Shown: piece after piece, positions 5,651-60,922 of the stretch
How positions within the stretch are numbered: the first letter of the stretch is position 1
Layout: each line of letters begins with the position of its first letter
Origin: Bacillota bacterium
GTDB taxonomy: Bacteria; Bacillota_I; Bacilli_A; RF39; UBA660
Reading direction: 5' to 3'
Length of the DNA: 64,000 bases
NCBI GenBank assembly: GCA_015059375.1
Contig: SVAN01000004.1
Location: forward strand, 142 to 64,141
Translations under genes and position numbers: made by a program
The notes under the pieces: model-generated
The model's input: the letters and a program-made list of their open reading frames with translations, nothing else
The model's database searches: none
Told to the model about the DNA's origin: nothing

Positions 5651-5680
5651 TCATCCATAATAATTATGGGTGATTTTTTT
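5651..5680 (+). terminator. rho-independent terminator after rnj
   Basis: TCATCCAT (5651-5658) pairs with ATGGGTGA (5666-5673, one G-U), then T7. It overlaps the GTG at 5670 proposed as the start of the next ORF. Confidence 0.6.
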
Positions 5681-6116
5681 GACTAAAAATATAGACTTTT
5701 TGAATGATATTTATCAAAATGCACAAATGGGAATTATTGGTATTGATGAAGTTTTGTATAAAGTTAAAGATGATAAATTAAAAAGAGAATTAGAAAGAGA
5801 GAAAAAAGGATTTAATAAGATTATTACTAAATGTACAAAAAATTTAAAAGAATATAAGTGTAAACCAAAGAAAATAAGTTTTATGACTAAAATGAGTTCG
5901 GAATTTTATAGTGAAATGAAACTTAAAAGCGAAAATTGCGATGATATTATTCTCAAAATGATGATTGAAGGATCATATAAAAGTGTTGGAATTTTAACAA
6001 CAAAATTAATGACAAATGATGATTTATCTCAGGTTTCACTCGATTTAGCAGATAAACTTTTAGAGATGATTAACAGCAATATTGAACATTTAAAAAAGTT
6101 CGATAAAATTTGTTGA
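5670..6116 (+). CDS. hypothetical cytoplasmic helical protein
   Basis: 148-aa ORF, Lys/Glu-rich and predicted helical. The start is uncertain: GTG 5670 sits inside the upstream terminator, and TTG 5679 or ATG 5727 are alternatives. No family recognised. Confidence 0.5.
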   Translation: MIFLTKNIDFLNDIYQNAQMGIIGIDEVLYKVKDDKLKRELEREKKGFNKIITKCTKNLKEYKCKPKKISFMTKMSSEFYSEMKLKSENCDDIILKMMIEGSYKSVGILTTKLMTNDDLSQVSLDLADKLLEMINSNIEHLKKFDKIC

Positions 6117-6158
6117 GTCGAATTTAAATTTGTGCTATTATTATGATAAGGTGAATGT

Positions 6159-7253
6159 ATGAAGCATAACAAGTACACGCTAATCATCGTTATAATAATG
6201 GCACTTATTTCTTTTATGTGCTTATCTTTAAGCGTGTCTTACTCTTATGTTTTACGTTCGCGCGTATCGGGAAATGCATTAGTAATTACAACTGGAAATT
6301 TAACTTCTACAGTTACATATACATCTAAAGATTTATTTTTAATTTCACAAAGTGATGATGACGGTTTAGCTCAAGACGAATATGGGATTATTAATATTGC
6401 TAAAAATAATGTTTATAGTGTATTTTACACGATGAATATTGGTTATGCAGTTGATGAACTTCCTTCGGACAAAACTGCTGCAGATTTATTACCAATGGAA
6501 TATATTAGAGTTGCGTTATATGAAATAAGTGGGGGATCATTAAGTGAAAATCCAATCGTGGGACCGATTAAATTAACTGATTTAACGGTATCTTCAGTTA
6601 ATGCTGATAGTGTATATCGTGACACTTTTTTATTAAATTATGGAACGTTTAATTCTGGTAATCAAACTAAAACATTTGGCTTAAAAGTTTGGCTTGATGA
6701 AAATACGCCAATAAGTTATGATGAATATTTAATATATTTAGGAATTAGTGTAAACCAAGAAACGTTAGTAAGCAAATCAATATATAATTTATCTGGTAAA
6801 GTGCTTAATTCAAGTGGTAGTGCAATAAGTGGTGCAACCGTTAAATTCCATAATGGAAAAGTTACCTCAACGACAGCTGCCGATGGGACATATAGTTTAA
6901 ATAATGTTCCAACCGGAACTTACAATATTTCAGTACTATATAATGGTGTCGAATATAAAACGACTATGCATGTTAAATATGGTCAAAGTGTTGCACTACA
7001 AAGTACAGGAGGCGCTACCGGAGCGGCAAGTACTTACCTACAAAGTAGTGCATATACATATTATACTTCTCCAGGCTTGATTATGTCTGCAAATAATCTT
7101 TCAACAACATCAAATCAATTAACGACATCAACTTATACAATTCCAAATGCGTATGTGTTAACAGGGCTAGAATCTTTAAGTATTTTATCAATTAATAACT
7201 TGAATTTAACGTTAAATAATGATAATACTTTAAGTATAGCGTTAGCGTCGTAG
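6159..7253 (+). CDS. secreted/anchored protein: divergent member of the local paralog family fused to a carboxypeptidase-regulatory-like beta-sandwich
   Basis: 364 aa. N-terminal n-region plus h-region ending in SVSYSYV (a variant of the SipW-class motif). Residues ~210-270, SGKVLNSSGSAISGATVKFHNGKVTSTTAADGTYSLNNVPTGTYNISVLYNGVEY, match the CarboxypepD_reg pattern. The C-terminal region is Ser/Thr/Asn-rich. Confidence 0.7.
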   Translation: MKHNKYTLIIVIIMALISFMCLSLSVSYSYVLRSRVSGNALVITTGNLTSTVTYTSKDLFLISQSDDDGLAQDEYGIINIAKNNVYSVFYTMNIGYAVDELPSDKTAADLLPMEYIRVALYEISGGSLSENPIVGPIKLTDLTVSSVNADSVYRDTFLLNYGTFNSGNQTKTFGLKVWLDENTPISYDEYLIYLGISVNQETLVSKSIYNLSGKVLNSSGSAISGATVKFHNGKVTSTTAADGTYSLNNVPTGTYNISVLYNGVEYKTTMHVKYGQSVALQSTGGATGAASTYLQSSAYTYYTSPGLIMSANNLSTTSNQLTTSTYTIPNAYVLTGLESLSILSINNLNLTLNNDNTLSIALAS

Positions 7254-7269
7254 GAAAGGGAATGAAGTA

Positions 7270-7941
7270 ATGAAGACAGAAAGAATAAATATACCATTAA
7301 CTGCCATTTCCCTAATGTCGCTACTATTTATAACCATATCTGCGTCATATGCTTACTTTAGTTCCAAAGCGCAAGGCGATATAACTGTAAATACAAATGT
7401 AACAACTGTGGACGCGGCAACGTTTACTGCATACACATTGGATGCAATAGAGTTAAATGTTACTAGTGAAGATATGTTTTCGTCAAGTACTACACCAGCA
7501 AAAAGTGATAATGGCACAATTGTTGCATCACTAGCGTCTCCACAAGAAAATATTACTGTTAATTGCAGTTATGACATTGAATTAATCTGGGATACAACAG
7601 ATCAATATACCTCTCCAACAACAACTTTAGCAGCCCCATATCCATATGAAATATCATTATTGGGAACGCAAAGCGTAAGCGGAGATACAACAGGACATAC
7701 TTATACAGTAAGTTCATTAACAGAGACTAATTTAACAGGGTTTACTTGGAACGGAACCATAGGCGAAGTAGGGCGAAGTGCCAAAGTAATCTCTGGTGCA
7801 CAAATATATAGCAAATCGTTAAATGCAACGACAGCAACTTGGAACTTTACACTTAATTTTTATTCGTTGCCAACAGACCAAACCGCGATTACCGGCAAAA
7901 ATTATGGCGCTCATTTAGCGGTTACAAATGTAATTTGTTAA
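7270..7941 (+). CDS. secreted TasA/camelysin-like (SipW-class signal peptide) paralog 2
   Basis: 223 aa. Signal region ...LLFITISASYAYFSS, internal Cys99 (VNCSYDIELIW), C-terminal ...LAVTNVIC. RBS GGAAAGGGA sits just after the stop of the previous gene. Confidence 0.75.
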   Translation: MKTERINIPLTAISLMSLLFITISASYAYFSSKAQGDITVNTNVTTVDAATFTAYTLDAIELNVTSEDMFSSSTTPAKSDNGTIVASLASPQENITVNCSYDIELIWDTTDQYTSPTTTLAAPYPYEISLLGTQSVSGDTTGHTYTVSSLTETNLTGFTWNGTIGEVGRSAKVISGAQIYSKSLNATTATWNFTLNFYSLPTDQTAITGKNYGAHLAVTNVIC

Positions 7942-7968
7942 TTTGTGTTAAATTAGTAACAAAAACAC

Positions 7969-7997
7969 TTGCTAACTATAGCAAGGTGTGATAATAT
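7969..7997 (+). promoter_or_regulatory. putative sigma-A promoter of the central paralog
   Basis: TTGCTA (7969-7974), 17-nt spacer, TAATAT (7992-7997) with TG at the extended -10 position. An imperfect hairpin CACTTGCT/AGCAAGGTG overlaps it. Confidence 0.45.
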
Positions 7998-8025
7998 TTA
8001 TAATAGAAAGGAGATAACAAAAGAG

Positions 8026-8694
8026 ATGGAAAAAAGAAATACTTTATTATTAACAGTTATCGCAGTAGCTACATTATTAGTAGCAGTAGTAGGAGCTACA
8101 TTTGCATACTTCGCAAGTACATCATCAGTTACAAATACTTTAGATTTAAATACTACTACTCAAGCGAGTACAGCATCATTAACAGCTGAACAAGCTGCGT
8201 TAGCAATGACTGTGACACCAGACTTAATGCAAAAAGGTGATGCTAAGAATGAAGTTGCAAAATTTGCTACTGAAGATTTAAAAGTTACTTTATCTTCAAC
8301 TATGCCAGCGACTTGTACTTACAATATTTCTTGGGCTTGGGATTCAGGAGTAACTTATACACCAGTTGCTAGTCTTGATAGTTTAGGTGGTAAAGAATTT
8401 ACTATTGCTATTGCATATGCTGATAATAAGGCTACTGGTGATGAGGTAACTAATTCTGGTACACCAGGACAAAATATTACTTTAGGAACAACTGAAACAA
8501 ACTTTGATAAAGTTCCTGCAACTGTAATTACTGGTGCTAAGATTTATACTGATGGTACTGCTGCAACTATACAAACTTGGACAGTTACTGCTAGAGTTTA
8601 TAACTTAAATGCTGATCAAGCTAACCTATTAGGTGCTGAGGAAAAAGGTACATCATTTACTGGTAAATTCAGTATTACTGACGTAGTTTGCTAG
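8026..8694 (+). CDS. secreted TasA/camelysin-like (SipW-class signal peptide) paralog 3, probable major subunit
   Basis: 222 aa from ATG 8026 (RBS AAAGGAGA). Signal region LLVAVVGATFAYFAS is closest to camelysin GGTFAYFSD. Followed by TNTLDLNT, internal Cys97 (ATCTYNISWAW) and C-terminal ...FSITDVVC. It has its own promoter and terminator and noticeably different codon choice (GCT/ACT/GGT-rich). Confidence 0.8.
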   Translation: MEKRNTLLLTVIAVATLLVAVVGATFAYFASTSSVTNTLDLNTTTQASTASLTAEQAALAMTVTPDLMQKGDAKNEVAKFATEDLKVTLSSTMPATCTYNISWAWDSGVTYTPVASLDSLGGKEFTIAIAYADNKATGDEVTNSGTPGQNITLGTTETNFDKVPATVITGAKIYTDGTAATIQTWTVTARVYNLNADQANLLGAEEKGTSFTGKFSITDVVC

Positions 8695-8706
8695 TTATCT
8701 TATATT

Positions 8707-8738
8707 AAAAAAATCGACCATTTATTGGTCGTTTTTTT
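8707..8738 (+). terminator. rho-independent terminator after paralog 3
   Basis: CGACCA (8714-8719) pairs with TGGTCG (8725-8730), flanked by A-run and T-run. Confidence 0.7.
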
Positions 8739-8791
8739 GTTGTCATAAGCACCTAATTTGTGTTATTATATTATTAAGGTAGGAAACCGTA

Positions 8792-9451
8792 ATGAAGAGT
8801 GAAGAAAAGAATTATAAAACTGTTATGATTGCTGTTGTTTCTGTTATAGTGATGATAATTACAGTCACTTCTTTTACGTATGCCTTTTTTACTGCAAAAG
8901 TATCAACTCTAAATAATTTATCTATTAACGCTACAATTAGTGATGAATATAGTCCAGTTTTAACTGCTTATCCAAGTGGCGATTTGTCAGTTATGGTGAC
9001 AAGCGCAGATATGCTTGATACTGGAGCAAGTAGTGATAATACTTCAATAGGTGATTCTGCAAAGCAAAATTTGTATGTTACTTTATCAGCAGGTGGTGGC
9101 CAAGCAAATTCTTCGGTTACTTGTACGTATGATTTAGTTTGGAAAGATACTAGCGCAGCATCTTATGTTCCAAGTCCCAATGCCGTAAGTGAGAATTTAA
9201 AAGAATATACAATTAAAGTTATAGATAATACTGGTAGTGTAATCTATGCTGAAAATGGTGTGGATACAATGCTTTCGAGTGCAGTAAATAATGAGTTAAC
9301 TTTAGCTACTGGTTTAAGCATAGTTTCATCTGGGACAATGACAACTAAAACGTATACAGTAATTGCCACTATTTATAATTTAAATGTGGTTCAAAACATA
9401 TATAATAAAACTTATTCAAGTATGATTGGGGTTACTAATGTAACTTGTTAA
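8792..9451 (+). CDS. secreted TasA/camelysin-like (SipW-class signal peptide) paralog 4
   Basis: 219 aa. Signal region ...VMIITVTSFTYAFFTA, internal Cys111 (VTCTYDLVWK), C-terminal ...IGVTNVTC. Confidence 0.75.
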   Translation: MKSEEKNYKTVMIAVVSVIVMIITVTSFTYAFFTAKVSTLNNLSINATISDEYSPVLTAYPSGDLSVMVTSADMLDTGASSDNTSIGDSAKQNLYVTLSAGGGQANSSVTCTYDLVWKDTSAASYVPSPNAVSENLKEYTIKVIDNTGSVIYAENGVDTMLSSAVNNELTLATGLSIVSSGTMTTKTYTVIATIYNLNVVQNIYNKTYSSMIGVTNVTC

Positions 9452-9462
9452 GAGGGGTAAAA

Positions 9463-10098
9463 ATGAGTAGAAAAAATAAGACAATTGTGTGGCTTTTATT
9501 ATTTGTTTTTTTGATTGTAATATTTACATCACTGGGTACTTATGCTTTTTTTGAAGCTAGAGAATATTTCTATGGTAACTTTGATGTTGAAGTAACTACT
9601 AAAGGCGTTGATACCTTAGCGTTTACAGGTAATCATGATATTGAACTCGTGGCAAATGCCAATAATTTTGCTCCTGATATTGGTTATAATTTAACAGGAA
9701 GGGCTAAAATGGAGGTGAAGCTTGACACGACAAAAGCAAGTGCAAGTTATTGTTATGAACTTAAGATGAACTTGCCAGAAGAAAAAGTGTTTACATATTC
9801 AGTTGGGAGCAATCGACCAGATTTATTATTAAACGTGCGGTTTTCATCGGATGGAAAGCAATATGAAAGTATTATCAGCAATATGGATATTACTGAAAAA
9901 ACGGGAGTGATTGATATTCCAGTTGGTAAAGATGGTAATGTTTATTTACATAAAATTGAAACAACTAAAAATATTACAAATATTCATAATTGGCAAGCTG
10001 ATATAACTTTGGTATGGTTTGATGATGTTGATCAAGTAATTAATGATAATAAAACTTATAGTGCATTTTTAGAAGCAAAACGTGTAGATTGTAATTAA
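9463..10098 (+). CDS. secreted TasA/camelysin-like (SipW-class signal peptide) paralog 5 (most divergent)
   Basis: 211 aa from ATG 9463 (RBS AGAGGGG). Signal region ...LIVIFTSLGTYAFFEA, internal Cys97 (SYCYELKM), C-terminal ...KRVDCN (Cys penultimate). Confidence 0.7.
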   Translation: MSRKNKTIVWLLLFVFLIVIFTSLGTYAFFEAREYFYGNFDVEVTTKGVDTLAFTGNHDIELVANANNFAPDIGYNLTGRAKMEVKLDTTKASASYCYELKMNLPEEKVFTYSVGSNRPDLLLNVRFSSDGKQYESIISNMDITEKTGVIDIPVGKDGNVYLHKIETTKNITNIHNWQADITLVWFDDVDQVINDNKTYSAFLEAKRVDCN

Positions 10099-22833: not shown

Positions 22834-23625
22834 ATGATAATATACGTAGACCTAATTTTTTTTATTAATTTTGCATATGATTTTTTATTGCTTTTAACAG
22901 TAGGGATTGTATTAAAAAGAAAGACAAATATATATCGACATCTTTTATCTGCAACCTTTGGCGGCTTGTCAATTTTTCTTTTATTTTTGCCGGGAAATGA
23001 GTATTTAATTTTTGGATTAAAGCTTATTGTTAGCGTTATCATGTGTTTAATTTCGTTTAAATATATTTCATTTCGTTATACATTAAATAATTTAAGTTAT
23101 TTATATATGACAAGTATTATTTTAGCGGGTTTTTTATATTATTTAGATACTAAGTTTTCTTATTCTCATCAAGGTTTAGTTTTCTTTTTTAATGGAATTT
23201 CAGTTAACTACCTTTTGTTAATGATTGTAGCTCCAATTATTTTAGTGGCATACATAATTAGTTCTAAAAAATTAAAAAGTACATATAACTTATATTATCA
23301 TCTTGAAATTTATTTTGATGATCTAAAAATAAGTTGTTTGGCCTTGTTTGATAATGGAAATAATTTAAAAGATCCTTTAACCAAGAAACCAGTAATAATT
23401 ATTAGTAAAAAGCTTTTAAAAGGAACCAATCATAATCGTGATCCAATGTATATACCTTATAACACTGTAAGTGGTAGCTCCGTTATGAAGTGTTATAAAC
23501 CCAGTTTTATTATTTTAAATGGTAAAAAAATATATAATTATTTAGTTGGTGAGAGTGACTATCGTTTTAGCGATGGTGTAGAAGGACTTTTGAACGTTAA
23601 ATTAATGGAGGATAAATATGTTTAA
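22834..23625 (+). CDS. spoIIGA: sigma-E processing peptidase SpoIIGA
   Basis: 263 aa. Five N-terminal TM segments plus a C-terminal protease domain with LFDNGNNLKDPLTKKPVIIIS. Overlaps sigE in the conserved ftsZ-spoIIGA-sigE-sigG order. Confidence 0.85.
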   Translation: MIIYVDLIFFINFAYDFLLLLTVGIVLKRKTNIYRHLLSATFGGLSIFLLFLPGNEYLIFGLKLIVSVIMCLISFKYISFRYTLNNLSYLYMTSIILAGFLYYLDTKFSYSHQGLVFFFNGISVNYLLLMIVAPIILVAYIISSKKLKSTYNLYYHLEIYFDDLKISCLALFDNGNNLKDPLTKKPVIIISKKLLKGTNHNRDPMYIPYNTVSGSSVMKCYKPSFIILNGKKIYNYLVGESDYRFSDGVEGLLNVKLMEDKYV

Positions 23626-24298
23626 AAAGTGGTTAAGAAAGATTTTCCAAAAATATCATGAGGTTTTTTTCGTCGGTGCGACCGATAAATTGCCCCCACC
23701 GTTGAATAAAGATGAAGAACTAGAATATGTCAAAAAAGCTAAGGCTGGAGATGAATGGGCTAAAAATAAGTTAATTGAGCACAATTTAAGATTAGTTGTT
23801 TTTTTAGCTAAAAAATATGAAAGTACGGGCTATGATTTAGAAGATTTAGTTTCTATTGGATCAATTGGATTAATAAAAGGAATTAATACATATAAAATAA
23901 ATAAAAATATTAAACTGGCTACTTATGCTAGTCGATGTATTTCTAACGAAATTTTAATGTATATTCGTAAAAATAAAAAAAGAAAAGTAGAAGTCAGTTT
24001 AGAAGAATCCTTGAATTATGATGCTGAAGGAAATGAGCTTCATTTAGAGGATGTTTTAGGAACCGAAGAAGACATAGTACCAAAGACTTTTGAAAATACA
24101 CTAAATAAAGAATTTTTAAATAAAGAAATTCAAAAATTAAATGCGCGAGATAAGGAAATAATGATTTTACGTTACGGGTTAAACAATACTAAAGAATATA
24201 CCCAAAAAGAGGTGGCAAAAATGTTAGGGATATCTCAATCTTATATTTCTCGCATTGAAAAAAAGGTTATAAATAATTTGCAAGTGTTAATTGGCTAG
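23618..24298 (+). CDS. sigE: sporulation sigma factor SigE (pro-sigma-E)
   Basis: 226 aa. Pro-sequence followed by the ...FFVGATDKLPPPLNKDEE junction, region 2 NLRLVVFLAKKY, region 4.2 HTH QKEVAKMLGISQSYISRIEKK. Confidence 0.92.
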   Translation: MFKKWLRKIFQKYHEVFFVGATDKLPPPLNKDEELEYVKKAKAGDEWAKNKLIEHNLRLVVFLAKKYESTGYDLEDLVSIGSIGLIKGINTYKINKNIKLATYASRCISNEILMYIRKNKKRKVEVSLEESLNYDAEGNELHLEDVLGTEEDIVPKTFENTLNKEFLNKEIQKLNARDKEIMILRYGLNNTKEYTQKEVAKMLGISQSYISRIEKKVINNLQVLIG

Positions 24299-24305
24299 TA
24301 TGAAT

Positions 24306-24351
24306 AAAAAGATTCCTTTTACCCCATTATAAAGGCGAAAGGAATCTTTTT
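24306..24351 (+). promoter_or_regulatory. perfect 14-bp hairpin between sigE and sigG that occludes the sigG RBS
   Basis: AAAAAGATTCCTTT (24306-24319) and AAAGGAATCTTTTT (24338-24351) are exact reverse complements. The 3' arm contains AAAGGA and ends 1 nt before the sigG ATG at 24352. Confidence 0.7.
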
Positions 24352-25128
24352 ATGAGCAAATACAAAGTGGATATTACAGGAATTAATACCAGTCAGTTAA
24401 AAGCGTTATCTCATGAACAAAATATGGAATTATTTAAAAAATTGAAAGCAGGAAACGAGGAAGCCAAAAATGAACTGATAAATGGAAATTTAAAGTTAGT
24501 ATTATCTATTTTAAAAGGTTTTAATAAACATAATTTAAATATGGATGATTTATTTCAAGTAGGGGTAATTGGTTTAATTAAAGCAATAGATAATTTTGAT
24601 ATTTCTTATAATTTGAAACTATCTACTTATGGTGTACCGCTTATTTTAGGAGAAATAAAAAAATATTTACGAGATAATACTTCAATTAGAGTTTCGCGGA
24701 GTATCAAAGATAATGCATATCAAATTTTAAGATTTAAAGAAGATTATATTAATGTTCACGGAAGAGAACCGAGTATAACAGAAATAAGCTGTGCTTTAGG
24801 GATGAAAGAATACGATATTGGTTATGCTTTGGAATCTTTAAGAGAACCAATGAGTATTTTTGAGCCAATATATAGTGATGGCGGTGATACCATTTATTTA
24901 GAAGATCAAATTGCGGATAAAAAAGAACAGAGCAAGGACCATGATATGTTAATATCCATGCATCGAGCGCTTCAAAAAATTGATGTTCGAGAAAGAAATG
25001 TTTTGATGGATAGATTTGTTGTCGGAAAAACCCAGTCAGAAATCGCTAGAATGTTAAATATTTCGCAAGCTCAGGTATCTCGAATTGAAAAAAATGCTAT
25101 GGCTAAAGTGCGAAAATTGATAAAATAA
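24352..25128 (+). CDS. sigG: sporulation sigma factor SigG
   Basis: 258 aa. SigF/G-type regions (GNLKLVLSILKGF, LSTYGVPLILGEIKKYLRDN, QSEIARMLNISQAQVSRIEKNA). Sits immediately after sigE. Confidence 0.9.
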   Translation: MSKYKVDITGINTSQLKALSHEQNMELFKKLKAGNEEAKNELINGNLKLVLSILKGFNKHNLNMDDLFQVGVIGLIKAIDNFDISYNLKLSTYGVPLILGEIKKYLRDNTSIRVSRSIKDNAYQILRFKEDYINVHGREPSITEISCALGMKEYDIGYALESLREPMSIFEPIYSDGGDTIYLEDQIADKKEQSKDHDMLISMHRALQKIDVRERNVLMDRFVVGKTQSEIARMLNISQAQVSRIEKNAMAKVRKLIK

Positions 25129-39041: not shown

Positions 39042-39100
39042 AAATCTCTTGAAATTACCTAATATAATATGATAATATTAAATCATAGAGGTGAGTGGAT

Positions 39101-39613
39101 ATGTTAAGAAACAAAGATGGTTTCACATTAGTAGAATTACTAGCAGTTATCGTTATTTTAGCGGTTGTTATGCTTATTGCTGTTACGGCTGTTGGACCAA
39201 TGATGACAAGGTCAAGAATTAGTGCATTAGGCACAGAAGGAATTAAAGTTATTGATGCAGCAAAAACTGCATATCAAGCTGAACAATTATCAGGAACTTC
39301 TGCAATTAAAGCAACTTCATCAGTATGTTTTGATTTAGCTTGGTTATACAACGAACAATATTTTGAAAAAGGTTCTGGTGCTAGTGGTGATGGATATGAA
39401 GGTTCTGTATTAGTTACATATTCAGGCGGAAAATATTCTTATAAATATTGGTTAACTAATAGTACTTATTGGTTAGTAGAAGCTGAAGCAAATGGTGGAT
39501 ATTCTGAAGTAAACAATACAACCGTTCGTGATAATGGAACTGGTTTAACAATGAATAACTGTGGCGGAGCTACAAGTGTTGTTAAATGTTCTGGCACTAG
39601 TGCGTGTGCATAG
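39101..39613 (+). CDS. type IV prepilin / pseudopilin-like protein (orphan)
   Basis: 170 aa from ATG 39101 (RBS AGAGGTGA). Class III signal MLRNKDG|FTLVELLAVIVILAVVMLIAV with Glu at +5. C-terminal Cys residues (NNCGG...VVKCSGTSACA) suggest a disulfide loop. Confidence 0.85.
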   Translation: MLRNKDGFTLVELLAVIVILAVVMLIAVTAVGPMMTRSRISALGTEGIKVIDAAKTAYQAEQLSGTSAIKATSSVCFDLAWLYNEQYFEKGSGASGDGYEGSVLVTYSGGKYSYKYWLTNSTYWLVEAEANGGYSEVNNTTVRDNGTGLTMNNCGGATSVVKCSGTSACA

Positions 39614-51885: not shown

Positions 51886-51912
51886 TAATGAGCACAAGAA
51901 AGGGTGAATAAA

Positions 51913-52356
51913 ATGAACAATAACACAAACGGATCCGGTAACTGCATTAATGAAATTTTATCAGTTATCCTAGTTCTTCAAGAAAACGCTTGCCCAGATA
52001 ACTGCTTAGATACATGCGATAGACCAATGCTAGGAGGCGGAGCAAACTGTTTAATTTGTAACACTAGGCCAGTAATGCTTTATACTTGCTGCGGAAATGG
52101 TGTTCCATGGAGTATGCCGACGAGTAAAGATAACATGACAAATTGTAGTGGTGAACCTTTAGAAAATACTTGTTCAACTGTCTTTAGAGTTGAAAAAGTT
52201 GAGGGCAATTGCTGTACCTTTAGAGTACTTGCTTCCAATCCGGACGAAACTTCATTAAATCCATATGTTGCAACAAATTCTTTCTTTACAATGGATTGTA
52301 GTTGCTTATGTAGTATTAGATGTTTATCTGATACCTATGTTGATTGTGTTTGCTAA
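51913..52356 (+). CDS. CotY/CotZ/ExsY-family Cys-rich spore coat/exosporium protein
   Basis: 147 aa from ATG 51913. [26 protein letters not shown] parallels CotY [41 protein letters not shown] parallels FFRVEKLCDCCATLSIL. C-terminal [11 protein letters not shown]. Confidence 0.75.
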   Translation: [147 protein letters not shown]

Positions 52357-58443: not shown

Positions 58444-58917
58444 ATGAAAAAATTGTGGAAGGAAAATAGAGTTTTATTTATCCTTTGGATAATTTTATTT
58501 ATTTGTTTTATGGCCATTGTATCGGTTGCTTTAACATTCTTTTATTCAAAAGATGTTAGTAGTTATGGTCCAAGACTGGAAGGAATTGAAAATCATCCAA
58601 TTACATCCGAAGATAAGAATACTTATAAAGAGACTATGTTAGAAAATGAAAATGTTACTAAAGTTTCATTTAATCTACAAAAAAGAGTTATATACATTCA
58701 TATTGATTTTGATGCAGAAATATCTGTTGAAGATGCCAAAGCTATTGTAAATAATTCAGTTAATTTATTTAGTGAAGATATTCTTTCATATTATGATTTT
58801 CAATTTGTCTTAGAAAGCGAAAATTTTACTATTATTGGCTCAAAAAATGCAATAGTAGATTACGTATCGTGGAATAATAATCGGGAAGTAGTAGAGGAAG
58901 AAACTGATGAAAAATAA
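58444..58917 (+). CDS. hypothetical membrane-anchored protein
   Basis: 157 aa. One N-terminal TM. Overlaps the start of the next gene (operon). Confidence 0.5.
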   Translation: MKKLWKENRVLFILWIILFICFMAIVSVALTFFYSKDVSSYGPRLEGIENHPITSEDKNTYKETMLENENVTKVSFNLQKRVIYIHIDFDAEISVEDAKAIVNNSVNLFSEDILSYYDFQFVLESENFTIIGSKNAIVDYVSWNNNREVVEEETDEK

Positions 58918-60922
58918 GAAGTACATAATAATAGGGGTTGTAATTCTATTATTAATCATAGCCGTAAGTGGTGGCGTTTATTTTTATTTAAATTCCAACC
59001 ATTTAACCATTTCTGAAAAGAATTGGATTGATTCTAATCGTTCAACATCACAAGTTATTAATATTAATGTAATTAATGATGCTTATGTTTTTGGTAATAC
59101 CGGAAGTGGTATTTTTTATGACTTTATTTCCGATTTTAAAGGACGTTATAATTTAAATATTAATGAAATTACTTTTAATTATGGCAGTGTAAATAACGGG
59201 GTTGTTTTTGGCGCGAAAACCAATCTTACTGAAAATGATGTTGTCTTTTTTACTGACCATTATGTTTTAATTGGTAAAGATTATGAAATTATTGGAGAAA
59301 TTGATGAGTTAGTAAATAAAAAAATTGCCGTTTTAAGTCGCGATTTATCTTATATTTCTAACTACATTAATAGTAGTAATATTAGTTTTAGAAGTTATGA
59401 TTCGGCTGATGATTTATTTACATCAATGTCTGATGAAAATGAATATGCTATTTTACCATTACATTTATATTTAGGAAACATTTTACAAAATAGCTATAAC
59501 ATTATATATCATTTTAGTGATATCAATATGTATTATACGATGACATTAACTGATGATACATTGAGTGGTATTTTAAATAAATATTATATCGATTGGCAAG
59601 AAGATTTTAGTGAATGTTACAGTGATAATTTATTTGATTTGATGGTAAGTAATCTTGGTATTACCGAAACAGAAATCGATGCAATGCAAAGTGTAACCTA
59701 TGAATATGGATATTTAAATAATTCACCTTATGAGGTTATATCTGGTGGTAACTATGGCGGTATCGCAGCAGTTTATTTGAGCGGATTTATGGATTTTGCA
59801 GATATTGAATTTAATTTTACAAAGTATCGAAATTTTAATAAATTTAATAAAGCTCTTAATAAAGGAAATGTTGATTTGTATTTTGGCTATTACAATATGA
59901 TTAATGATTTTTCTAAGACTTTAGGAGGAATTAATGTCGAATATTCAGTTATTGCTAATAGTAAAAATGATATTGTTATTAATTCTGTAAATTCTTTAGT
60001 TGGTAAAGAGGTTTATGTTGATAAAAATTCAATTTTATATACGTATTTAAAAAATATCAACGGAATCAATATTAATACATATGATAATACTAAAGAACTT
60101 TTAAAGCTAAATCGTAAAGATAAAATTATTTTTATTGATAGTAAAATTTTTGAGTATTATCAATCGCATGGATTAGAAAACTATACATTAAGATATCAAG
60201 CAGATATGAATTATGTTTATGGATTTAATGTAAAAAATAGTAGCGCGATGTATAAATTATTAAATAATTATATGTTAGTTACAGATCCTCATCGAGTATT
60301 AAATGAAGGAATATATAATCATAAACAAACCGTAAGTTCTGGTATGGTGCTTAGTTTATTAGCAAAATATTTCATTTATTTTTTAGTGGCTTTTGTGGTA
60401 ATTGCAATAATAGTTATTCATAAAACAAGAAAGATTACTATTGCTAAAAAAATAAAAAAAGATGATAAATTACGTTTTATTGACCAATTGACGCTATTAA
60501 AGAATCGTAATTATTTATCAGAGAATATTAAAGAATGGAGTAATAACACTATTTATCCTCAGGCTATATTAGTTATTGATTTAAATCATTTGCAACATAT
60601 TAATGATATTGAGGGTTATGATGAAGGAGATAAACAAATTAAAGCAGCTGCCAATGCATTAATGAAGACTCAATTAGATAATTCAGACATTATACGAACT
60701 GACGGAAATGAATTTGTGGTGTATATGGTTGGTTATTCTCAAAAACAAGTAACAAATTATATTCACAAGTTAAATAAAGAGTTTAAGAAATTACCTTATG
60801 ATTATGGTGCTGAATTTGGTTATTCCATGATCTTAGATGACATTAAAACAATCGAAGATGCACTTAATGAAGCTGTAAAAGCGCTAAAGAAGCAAAAGGA
60901 ATTAAATGAAAATAAAAACTAA
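58907..60922 (+). CDS. membrane sensor protein with large extracytoplasmic domain and degenerate GGDEF domain
   Basis: 671 aa. TM1 near the N-terminus, a ~440-aa extracytoplasmic region with solute-binding-protein-like repeats, TM2 (FIYFLVAFVVIAIIVI), then a GGDEF-fold domain (DQLTLLKNRNYL..., VIDLNHLQHINDIEGYDEGDKQIK) whose signature reads RTDGNEF. Confidence 0.75.
   Translation: MKNKKYIIIGVVILLLIIAVSGGVYFYLNSNHLTISEKNWIDSNRSTSQVININVINDAYVFGNTGSGIFYDFISDFKGRYNLNINEITFNYGSVNNGVVFGAKTNLTENDVVFFTDHYVLIGKDYEIIGEIDELVNKKIAVLSRDLSYISNYINSSNISFRSYDSADDLFTSMSDENEYAILPLHLYLGNILQNSYNIIYHFSDINMYYTMTLTDDTLSGILNKYYIDWQEDFSECYSDNLFDLMVSNLGITETEIDAMQSVTYEYGYLNNSPYEVISGGNYGGIAAVYLSGFMDFADIEFNFTKYRNFNKFNKALNKGNVDLYFGYYNMINDFSKTLGGINVEYSVIANSKNDIVINSVNSLVGKEVYVDKNSILYTYLKNINGININTYDNTKELLKLNRKDKIIFIDSKIFEYYQSHGLENYTLRYQADMNYVYGFNVKNSSAMYKLLNNYMLVTDPHRVLNEGIYNHKQTVSSGMVLSLLAKYFIYFLVAFVVIAIIVIHKTRKITIAKKIKKDDKLRFIDQLTLLKNRNYLSENIKEWSNNTIYPQAILVIDLNHLQHINDIEGYDEGDKQIKAAANALMKTQLDNSDIIRTDGNEFVVYMVGYSQKQVTNYIHKLNKEFKKLPYDYGAEFGYSMILDDIKTIEDALNEAVKALKKQKELNENKN

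Follow-up and report, generated by a model that had tools for sequence, protein, structure and literature searches.

Five tandem genes for exported proteins

The stretch analysed here (64,000 nucleotides, hereafter the window; positions 142 to 64,141 of contig SVAN01000004.1) is part of a 75.7-kb metagenome contig and comes from a member of the Bacilli with a low GC content (~30%). Five consecutive genes of its + strand, named W1 to W5 in 5' to 3' order (Table 1), encode proteins that all exhibit a short and basic n-region followed by a hydrophobic stretch ending in an aromatic motif. A preliminary description of this DNA, made from the sequence alone, had reported these genes as a candidate locus for a TasA-like extracellular fibre, and the lengths it gave (364, 223, 222, 219, and 211 residues) agree with both the list of open reading frames (ORFs) and the public gene calls of the source contig. 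The W3 and W5 ORFs open at TTG codons (positions 7969 and 9445, respectively), and it is from the ATG codons at 8026 and 9463 that proteins of 222 and 211 residues are obtained. A Shine-Dalgarno-like purine run precedes each ATG (aaggtga, ggaaaggga, aaaggaga, aaggtagga, and aagagggg, from W1 to W5), that of W3 being the best of the five. The ends that had been listed for the hydrophobic regions (SVSYSYV, SASYAYFSS, GATFAYFAS, TSFTYAFFTA, and LGTYAFFEA) are all present, and the richness in Thr, Ser, and Asn holds as well (32-36% of the residues in W1-W4, 23% in W5). Rfam and tRNA scans of the window report nothing relevant.

Table 1. Genes and putative regulatory sites of the W cluster, in window coordinates (↓, predicted cleavage point)
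Feature	Position	Strand	Length	Description	Proposed role
Promoter-like site	6113-6141	+		TTGAGT-17-TATTAT, extended -10 TG, 18 nt 5' of W1 (consensus scan)	Putative promoter
W1	6159-7253	+	364 aa	SVSYSY at presequence end; N-terminal domain weakly family-related; CarboxypepD_reg beta-sandwich at residues 211-279; Ser/Thr/Asn-rich C-terminal region	Proposed accessory subunit (adhesin, initiator or anchor)
W2	7270-7941	+	223 aa	Family paralogue; presequence end SASYA↓YF; Cys99 and C-terminal Cys223	Proposed minor subunit
W3	8026-8694	+	222 aa	Presequence MEKRNTLLLTVIAVATLLVAVVGATFA↓YF; ~22 disordered residues; 8-strand beta-sandwich; Cys97 and C-terminal Cys222	Proposed major fibre subunit
Terminator-like hairpin	8715-8741	+		CGACCATTTATTGGTCG then T-run, 21 nt past the W3 stop codon
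Promoter-like site	8740-8769	+		TTGTCA-18-TATTAT (TG), 5' of W4 (consensus match only)
W4	8792-9451	+	219 aa	Family paralogue; presequence end TSFTYA↓FF; Cys111 and C-terminal Cys219	Proposed minor subunit
W5	9463-10098	+	211 aa	Most divergent paralogue; LGTYA↓FF then EAREYFYGNFDV; Cys97 and Cys210	Proposed specialised minor subunit (initiator or terminator)

The relationships among the five proteins were analysed with an alignment of the window paralogues (A1), one of the W3 family (A2), and one of a small paralogue group linked to the signal peptidase SipW in other loci (A3), together with 87 related loci used for comparison (L001-L087). W2 to W5 can be aligned end to end with 25-32% identity (A1), W5 being the most deviant, and share one invariant Gln and one invariant Cys column. 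The final strand had been described as ending in Cys, which is the case in W2-W4, where this Cys is the last residue, but not in W5, where it is penultimate (...VDCN). Searching the window with a hidden Markov model (HMM) of A3 reports W2-W5 at E-values of ~1e-11 to ~1e-18 (2e-11 for W2, 1.9e-14 for W4, and 3e-18 for W5, the best of the four) and nothing else. Since this HMM was built from other loci only and matches all four proteins, their kinship goes far beyond chance. Regarding W1, its N-terminal domain returns a hit with A3 (hhalign with a W1 alignment, 67% probability, E = 5e-5 over 134 columns), and Pfam assigns it a CarboxypepD_reg domain (PF13620, 46.4 bits, E = 5e-12). The claim of five paralogues therefore stands for W2-W5, including their full-length alignment downstream of the presequence, and has to be amended for W1, which is weakly related through its N-terminal domain and carries an additional one.

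Presequence class and kinship with the TasA/camelysin superfamily

Among the 81 relatives scanned against Pfam and NCBIfam, TIGR04088 is the most frequent NCBIfam match (23 of 81 at E ≤ 0.1, best E = 4e-4). W3 itself scores 18.3 bits (E = 0.0019) for a curated cutoff of 19, and its orthologue in L054, whose presequence is identical at 26 of 29 positions, reaches 20.6 bits, above this cutoff; W1, W2, W4, and W5 do not return any match with this model at E ≤ 1. The hhalign comparison of W3 with TasA (the sequence used being identical to that of PDB 8AUR) places A27 on A27 and VVGATFA↓YFAS over VGGGTWA↓AFND. Because TFA↓YF aligns with TWA↓AF of TasA, Phe29 occupies the P2' position of W3, Ala27 position -1, and Thr position -3. 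Within the W3 family, A27 never varies, and conservation is 90% or more at T25, F26, Y28, and F29. A small residue at -1, an aromatic residue at -2, and Phe at P2' are found in W3 (TFA↓YF), W2 (SYA↓YF), W4, and W5 (both TYA↓FF), and W1 departs from this motif (SYS↓YV). The P2' Phe is what makes TasA a SipW-specific substrate (PMC10269814).

Ten of the 87 related loci encode an archaeal-type signal peptidase I located 2-9 kb from a W3-type gene. These ten proteins score 79-113 bits on TIGR02228 (cutoff 51.85), SipW ranks first or second among their NCBIfam models in every case, and the genes in their vicinity encode a presequence almost identical to that of W3. The assignment to the SipW class made in the preliminary description is thus borne out by the leading rank of TIGR04088 in the family, by the alignment of the TasA site, and by the SipW genes found beside the same presequence in relatives. 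The presequences of the W proteins are supported as members of the SipW-cognate class, and SipW-type processing of these proteins is predicted with good, if not high, confidence from such comparisons.

In the usual SipW operon of the related loci, a W3-like gene and a second small paralogue precede the gene of a large membrane protein whose repeats are Ser/Asp-rich, after which come sipW and the gene of a small membrane protein. No sipW gene is found in the operon of the window or in those of its closest relatives (L001, L004/L008, L014, and L021), and one is present in more distant relatives. The SipW operons of relatives contain genes for a membrane protein of the 'EEQYxxLEEEE' type, with Ser/Asp-rich repeats, and for a DUF5305 protein, and one of them contains a W1-like protein of 473 residues (L054 13620-15041). 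These three proteins are candidate extra components that the window is devoid of. Extra SipW-operon genes or W3-type arrays are held by L011 (10001-14849), L086, L041 (954-2933), L051 (4614-12719), and L054 (10001-15041).

The presequence itself is conserved to an unusual degree. Its 29 residues, ME(K/R)(K/R)NT.LLTVIA(V/I)ATLLVAVVGATFAYF, are nearly invariant in the W3-type genes (window positions 8026-8112 and L001-L087), in proteins that as a whole are <50% identical, and the presequence of W3 is identical in the closest relative although the mature part of W3 is only 41% identical. The mean pairwise identity within the W3 family amounts to 86% in the signal region versus 28% in the mature part, and likewise to 78% versus 43% in the TasA family alignment. 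Within the loci compared, the W3-type presequence is encoded by 74 distinct DNA versions, the synonymous sites of which vary freely; selection therefore acts on the peptide, and a DNA or RNA element as the cause of this conservation is ruled out. The W3-type presequence is far more constrained than export alone requires.

A conserved hydrophobic helix at the N-terminus is also a feature of pilins, and a set of five genes that includes one major and one large member is reminiscent of GspG-K or ComGC-GG. If the W proteins were type IV pilin-like or pseudopilin subunits (one major and four minor) built by a type IV pilus or type II secretion-like machine, the weak match of one family member with GspH (E = 1e-3) would find an explanation. 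However, none of the five proteins matches N_methyl or displays a G↓F-T-L-x-E motif before the hydrophobic stretch, their conserved motif being located after the h-region, and the modelled helix stops at the cleavage motif and does not pack against the globular domain. Genes for a pilus ATPase, a platform protein, or a prepilin peptidase are absent from the vicinity, and the window does encode a real prepilin (39095-39613, N_methyl 33.6 bits) with a quite different N-terminus. Given the absence of the prepilin motif and the presence of a true prepilin in the same window, the type IV pilin interpretation is rejected, its likelihood being negligible.

The kinship of the mature domains was traced through the intermediate group A3. 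Profile comparison aligns A2 with A3 over the whole length (hhalign, 99.5% probability, E = 8.6e-23 over 190 columns). In turn, three A3-type proteins score 37.9, 25.3, and 22.9 bits on PF12389 (Peptidase_M73; cutoff 22.5 bits) through their N-terminal third, and a fourth one scores 22.3 bits along positions 10-178 of the 196-position profile. With a 43-sequence TasA alignment, A3 returns a hit of 77.6% probability (E = 1.9e-5) that extends from the signal through the donor-strand region into the first strands. A search with A3 for bridging relatives annotated in Pfam reports 83 proteins, one of which is annotated PF12389, and hmmsearch of the family profiles against PDB sequences did not return any hit. 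The Pfam and NCBIfam searches that had been proposed in the preliminary description give a divided answer, with TIGR04088 ranking first for the family and PF12389 matching none of W1-W5 at E ≤ 1 (gathering score 22.5 bits). The remote relationship with TasA and camelysin suggested there is upheld by way of A3, as is that of a lineage-specific subfamily, which Pfam does not cover. Altogether, the W family very probably represents a deeply divergent branch of the TasA/CalY/BsaA (Peptidase_M73) superfamily, as judged from the profile comparisons that run through this intermediate group. It is large, with 2,899 cluster representatives (50% identity) for W3 at E ≤ 1e-3 and 1,537 at E ≤ 1e-10, and members of 400-1,159 residues also exist.

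Two other assignments were considered and rejected. The W3 translation does not contain any His and is therefore devoid of an HExxH motif, which rejects a metalloprotease ('camelysin') activity. Neither an LPXTG-type sorting signal nor a C-terminal hydrophobic segment is present in W1-W5 (the C-termini being ..V-x-C in W2-W4, ..VDCN in W5, and ..IALAS in W1), which rejects a sortase-assembled pilin.

Predicted fold, gene order and divergence

The AlphaFold2 model of W3 (predicted local distance difference test, pLDDT, of 83) exhibits a presequence helix, an unstructured segment at residues 29-50, and a beta-sandwich. The AlphaFold model of an A3-type protein has the same pLDDT and also starts with a presequence helix, and in both models a disordered stretch of 20-25 residues precedes a sandwich of eight or nine strands. 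Foldseek analysis of W3 reports the TasA fibre as its first match (8aur_A, E = 4e-3, probability 0.85, template modelling (TM) score 0.30, a weak hit), followed by the pilins FimG, PapG, CupB6, and CsuA/B. With the A3-type model as query, 8aur_A ranks first by query-normalised TM-score (0.45, probability 1.00, E = 3e-3, weak as well), and Fim/CupB6 pilins lead by E-value. Both of these fold classes, TasA and the chaperone-usher pilins, are fibre subunits completed by the N-terminal strand of a neighbour. The TasA donor strand covers residues 28-38, right after the SipW cut (PMC9674648), and residues 28-38 are disordered in the AlphaFold monomers of BsaA (PMC11580942). The balance tips slightly towards a donor-strand fibre being what the W proteins are predicted to form.

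Each of W2-W5 contains exactly two Cys residues, one located mid-sequence in a strand with the pattern xCxY(D/N) and one C-terminal (penultimate in W5). Conservation of the pair reaches 99-100% in the W3 family, and neither TasA nor most of the SipW-linked A3 proteins possess it; the pair likely represents a putative disulfide staple on the last strand. The W3 family was also inspected for an N-E-K isopeptide triad of the BsaA type, and the donor segment does not contain any conserved Asn; the conserved residues of the family are E124, Y192, N193, Q198, and a Lys near 207-209.

Regarding the genomic context, the cluster is flanked upstream by the RNase J gene and a small DUF2383-like gene and on the other side by Zip, epimerase, patatin, and dnaB-dnaI-recA genes, and it lies in the same place in several related metagenome-assembled genomes (MAGs). 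The order W1-(W2)-W3-(W4)-W5 is kept at this site of the chromosome among relatives that share 80-93% identity in RNase J, and more distant relatives exhibit W1-W3-W5 at the same site. W2 orthologues are found only in the window-like lineages L001, L004/L008, and L014; W2 and W4 are additions in the lineage of the window. W1 orthologues (362-375 residues) adjoin W3-type genes in many loci, and W5 belongs to a widely conserved orthologous group that directly follows W3 in the loci devoid of W2 and W4 (L021, L029, L031, L034, and L059). W4 orthologues possess C-terminal extensions (600 residues in total in L001, 10742-12544; 371 in L014, 10772-11887), and long C-terminal extensions are also observed in the family proteins P0201, P0180, and P0211, among members of up to 1,159 residues. 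These extensions suggest adhesin-like tips that may be fused to the fibre module.

The promoter-like hexamers upstream of W1 are found in the same place upstream of its orthologues (L008 8085-8113, L001 8094-8122). The hairpin following W3 is kept downstream of its orthologues with changes in both stem and loop (L008 10699-10725, L001 10649-10674), and a site comparable with that preceding W4 occurs in L001 (10692-10721, TTGAAA-18-TATTAT (TG)). In the comparison of the window with its closest relative L008, RNase J is 93% identical, W1, W2, W4, and W5 are 52-59% identical, and the mature part of W3 is 41% identical, so that W3 is the fastest-diverging of the five. The conserved promoter-like site, the hairpin following W3, and the best ribosome-binding site, that of W3, compose the arrangement that one would expect if an abundant major subunit were accompanied by low-copy partners.

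The promoter-like site also bears on a spore function. TasA was first described as a spore-associated protein (PMC9674648) and is also designated CotN (spore coat-associated protein N); the W proteins could similarly belong to the spore envelope or to appendages and not to a vegetative matrix or pili. The window does encode SpoIIGA, SigE, and SigG (22834-25128) and a CotZ-type spore coat protein (51904-52356), and its host, as read from these genes, has retained a sporulation toolkit, in contrast with many of the relatives that carry Tenericutes or Mycoplasma labels. Nevertheless, the promoter-like sequence conserved upstream of W1 belongs to the sigma-70/sigA type, the W genes lie among housekeeping and not sporulation genes, and the family also occurs in MAGs labelled Mycoplasma or Tenericutes, many such lineages being predicted not to sporulate (PMC10868615). 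A spore location is quite improbable.

Whether the five proteins would work together is a separate matter. They could be TasA-superfamily proteins that do not build a single heteropolymer, but serve as alternative or redundant subunits (antigenic variants or separate homopolymers) or as accessories that do not polymerise. In related genomes, up to six near-identical W3-type genes stand in tandem and several loci can occur in one genome, which resembles variant repertoires; BsaB of Clostridium perfringens stays out of the BsaA oligomers (PMC11580942); and the terminator-like hairpin with the ensuing promoter-like site divides the cluster into W1-W3 and W4-W5. However, W1, W3, and W5 form distinct orthologous groups, each with its own presequence and mature signature, and their order is fixed although the W proteins of relatives are 31-59% identical (31-52% for W1, 38-58% for W5). 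Distinct groups in a fixed order fit specialised, non-redundant roles better than interchangeable variants, and we consider independent or redundant subunits rather unlikely. That the five together compose one ordered heteropolymer, as gene order, the terminator after W3, and the differences in evolutionary rate may indicate, is a tentative proposal that falls somewhat short of being probable.

A candidate SipW-processed fibre and its known counterparts

In the mechanism that we infer, as regards cleavage and donor-strand polymerisation as much as the roles and stoichiometry of the subunits, W1-W5 would be exported by Sec, their precursors being held in the membrane through the conserved presequence. 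A signal peptidase of the SipW type (archaeal/ER-type), encoded elsewhere in the genome, would then cut after the invariant Ala (T-F-A↓Y-F in W3) and release an N-terminal stretch of ~20 residues headed by the conserved aromatic pair. The freed stretch would enter the beta-sandwich of the next subunit as a donor beta-strand, and subunits joined head to tail in this way would produce an extracellular fibre without chaperone, usher, or sortase. W3 would form the major, surface-exposed, and fast-evolving shaft, and W1, W2, W4, and W5 would be specialised subunits in low copy (adhesin, initiator, anchor, terminator). Taken as a whole, a SipW-processed donor-strand fibre of divergent TasA-superfamily proteins with W3 as the major one is the reading that we favour, with moderate confidence.

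A number of results weigh against it. No Pfam model matches W2-W5, W1 matches CarboxypepD_reg only, and 80 of the 81 family members do not return any Pfam match, the single remaining one hitting PF12389 at E = 0.039. The matches of the A3 group with PF12389 are mostly limited to profile positions 3-73, i.e. the signal and first strands. Compared directly, A2 aligns with TasA in the signal peptide alone, both with the single TasA sequence and with the 43-sequence alignment (E = 6.5e-3 for the latter), which is the reason why the link with TasA had to run through A3. The mature domain shows considerable change relative to TasA, with its conserved Cys pair and the loss of the 'PGD' motif. The Foldseek matches are all weak, none reaching E ≤ 1e-3 for W3, with TM-scores of 0.30-0.45 and chaperone-usher pilins that equal TasA. 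Lastly, a signal peptidase gene is absent from the 64 kb, as the preliminary description had stated: the ORFs of the window longer than 80 residues do not contain the box-B motif, tblastn of the window with the SipW proteins of related loci returns no match, and the S24/S26 Pfam families are not found in the next ~8 kb of the same contig.

The latter negatives, covering the window and the next ~8 kb, would also be in line with presequences that are never cleaved, i.e. with signal anchors of five monomeric, membrane-tethered, and variable surface proteins (adhesins or antigens) that form no fibre. The presequence is indeed conserved beyond the need of a disposable signal, under selection at the protein level, and is a confident helix in the AlphaFold2 model. 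However, an equally conserved signal is known to be cleaved in the TasA family, the Ala at -1, Thr at -3, and Phe at P2' agree with the TasA site, near-identical presequences occur in SipW operons, and the segment following the cut is disordered in the monomer models, as in known donor-strand subunits. Uncleaved anchors are thus improbable, and a SipW-processed donor-strand fibre remains the preferred explanation.

Among known systems, Bacillus subtilis TasA/TapA/SipW (operon tapA-sipW-tasA; PDB 8AUR and 5OF1) shares with the W proteins the architecture of the presequence and the T-[W/F]-A↓[A/Y]-F site with its P2' Phe, an unusually conserved signal, a donor-strand-type N-terminal extension starting at P1', and a beta-sandwich core (these last two as predicted for W). 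It also combines a major and an accessory subunit (roles that are proposed for W) with a dedicated archaeal-type peptidase, which for W is found only in related loci. In contrast, the mature domain of the W proteins does not align directly with TasA, is devoid of the NLxNxKPGD motif and of the long TasA insertions, and contains a conserved Cys pair with one Cys at or beside the C-terminus; there are five W paralogues versus two proteins, in an operon without sipW or a TapA homologue. The CalY/camelysin and TasA proteins of Bacillus cereus (PF12389) resemble W by their size (~200 residues), by a D-Q-x-x motif before the final strand, and by several paralogues near sipW. CalY carries an identical TFAYF motif. 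However, W1-W5 remain below the Pfam model, and the sister group A3 alone reaches PF12389, mainly through its N-terminal third.

The SipW-BsaA-BsaB-BsaC system of C. perfringens (PMC7395162, PMC11580942), which also consists of remote TasA homologues that BLAST misses, exhibits a multi-paralogue operon, no LPXTG signal, and residues following the signal that are disordered in AlphaFold monomers and predicted as donor strands. The BsaA oligomers are membrane-associated (PMC7395162, PMC11580942). Unlike Bsa, the W proteins possess a disulfide-type Cys pair in place of an identifiable conserved N-E-K triad, and their locus is devoid of a von Willebrand A protein and of an adjacent sipW or sortase gene. 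The bundling pili AbpA/AbpB of Pyrobaculum (PDB 7UEG; PMC9245690), compared with W by description only, are built by a very divergent TasA homologue detected by profile methods only; their operon comprises several genes, among them one for a larger accessory protein with multiple domains, and no dedicated peptidase gene lies beside it (PMC9245690). They differ by their archaeal host and by the processing proposed for AbpA, namely by a generic signal peptidase. Finally, the Ig-like subunits of chaperone-usher pili (FimA/F/G/H, PapG, CupB6, and CsuA/B) are the best or near-best Foldseek matches. In these pili, an N-terminal extension completes the neighbouring subunit, attenuation occurs after the gene of the major subunit, and one major and several minor subunits are combined with a larger tip adhesin, traits to which those of the W set are likened. 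Since the W host is monoderm, has no chaperone or usher genes, and its proteins share no sequence similarity with these pilins, this is an analogy and not membership.

Among the protein scaffolds of Gram-positive biofilms, TasA-type fibres are those best understood. To our knowledge, the examples known so far contain one or two types of subunit, and their sources are cultured Bacillus and Clostridium. The hosts of the W family are, in every locus examined, uncultured Bacilli with small genomes from animal or human guts. The source records of the relatives are gut or rumen MAGs labelled Bacilli, 'Mycoplasma sp. CAG:472', or Tenericutes, several being labelled Muribaculaceae, and we infer that their hosts belong to the RF39/RFN20/ML615J-28-like radiation. 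The family is invisible to domain databases. A conserved operon with three to five specialised paralogues, in which the major subunit evolves fast, suggests a surface organelle exposed to pressure from hosts or phages. The W operon offers a natural system for studying how donor-strand fibres order their subunits without chaperone or usher, and the family also bears on why SipW substrates retain such conserved presequences. A new Pfam or NCBIfam model is justified, with which the W genes would no longer be annotated 'hypothetical'.

A bolder version of the proposal, doubtful as a whole, may be put forward. The five proteins could form a pilus-like fibre in which five components follow a set order, all subunits have the TasA fold, and neither chaperone, usher, nor sortase is required, with W1 as adhesin or initiator, W5 and the other minor subunits setting order and length, and W3 as an antigenically variable shaft, a monoderm counterpart of chaperone-usher pili. 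The presequence would then be an assembly device in addition to an export tag, an uncleaved precursor serving as the membrane-tethered base of the fibre and the SipW cut at A27↓Y28 licensing each donor strand, and this fibre could be the chief appendage on the surface of the uncultured RF39/RFN20-like gut Bacilli. Some orders of these Bacilli are devoid of sortases (PMC10868615).

The preliminary description had called the locus undescribed, which does not hold for the class. A 2024-25 preprint reports the BsaA/TasA family as widespread and too divergent for BLAST, with paralogues that often share an operon, possibly as heteropolymers (PMC11580942), so that multi-paralogue TasA/BsaA operons are already known. 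The literature search did not return any paper on the W subfamily. What is new here is a large subfamily undetected by Pfam, its conserved set of three to five specialised paralogues including the CarboxypepD_reg-bearing W1 type, a conserved Cys pair, an extremely conserved presequence, and hosts among uncultured gut Bacilli.

Other genes of the window and contig may be mentioned. The DUF2383-like gene located between RNase J and W1 (5670-6116, +) encodes a small helical protein, probably cytoplasmic (25.5 bits, below the cutoff); its synteny extends to L001, L004/L008, and L014, and L021 has a shorter counterpart. The prepilin-like gene (+ strand) stands alone, with no pilus machinery genes nearby, and its product carries a GFTLVELL motif and a Cys-rich C-terminus. 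In C. perfringens, type IV pilus proteins help to secrete the Bsa matrix proteins (PMC11580942). A further gene (58907-60922, +) encodes a membrane protein ending in a GGDEF diguanylate cyclase domain (67.6 bits), a possible regulator of surface or biofilm traits. Lastly, ~3 kb past the end of the window, on the same contig (L091, 14780-20846), a 1,537-residue protein of the FtsK/SpoIIIE type (EssC-like) is followed by small WXG100 proteins, and these genes look like a type VII secretion locus.

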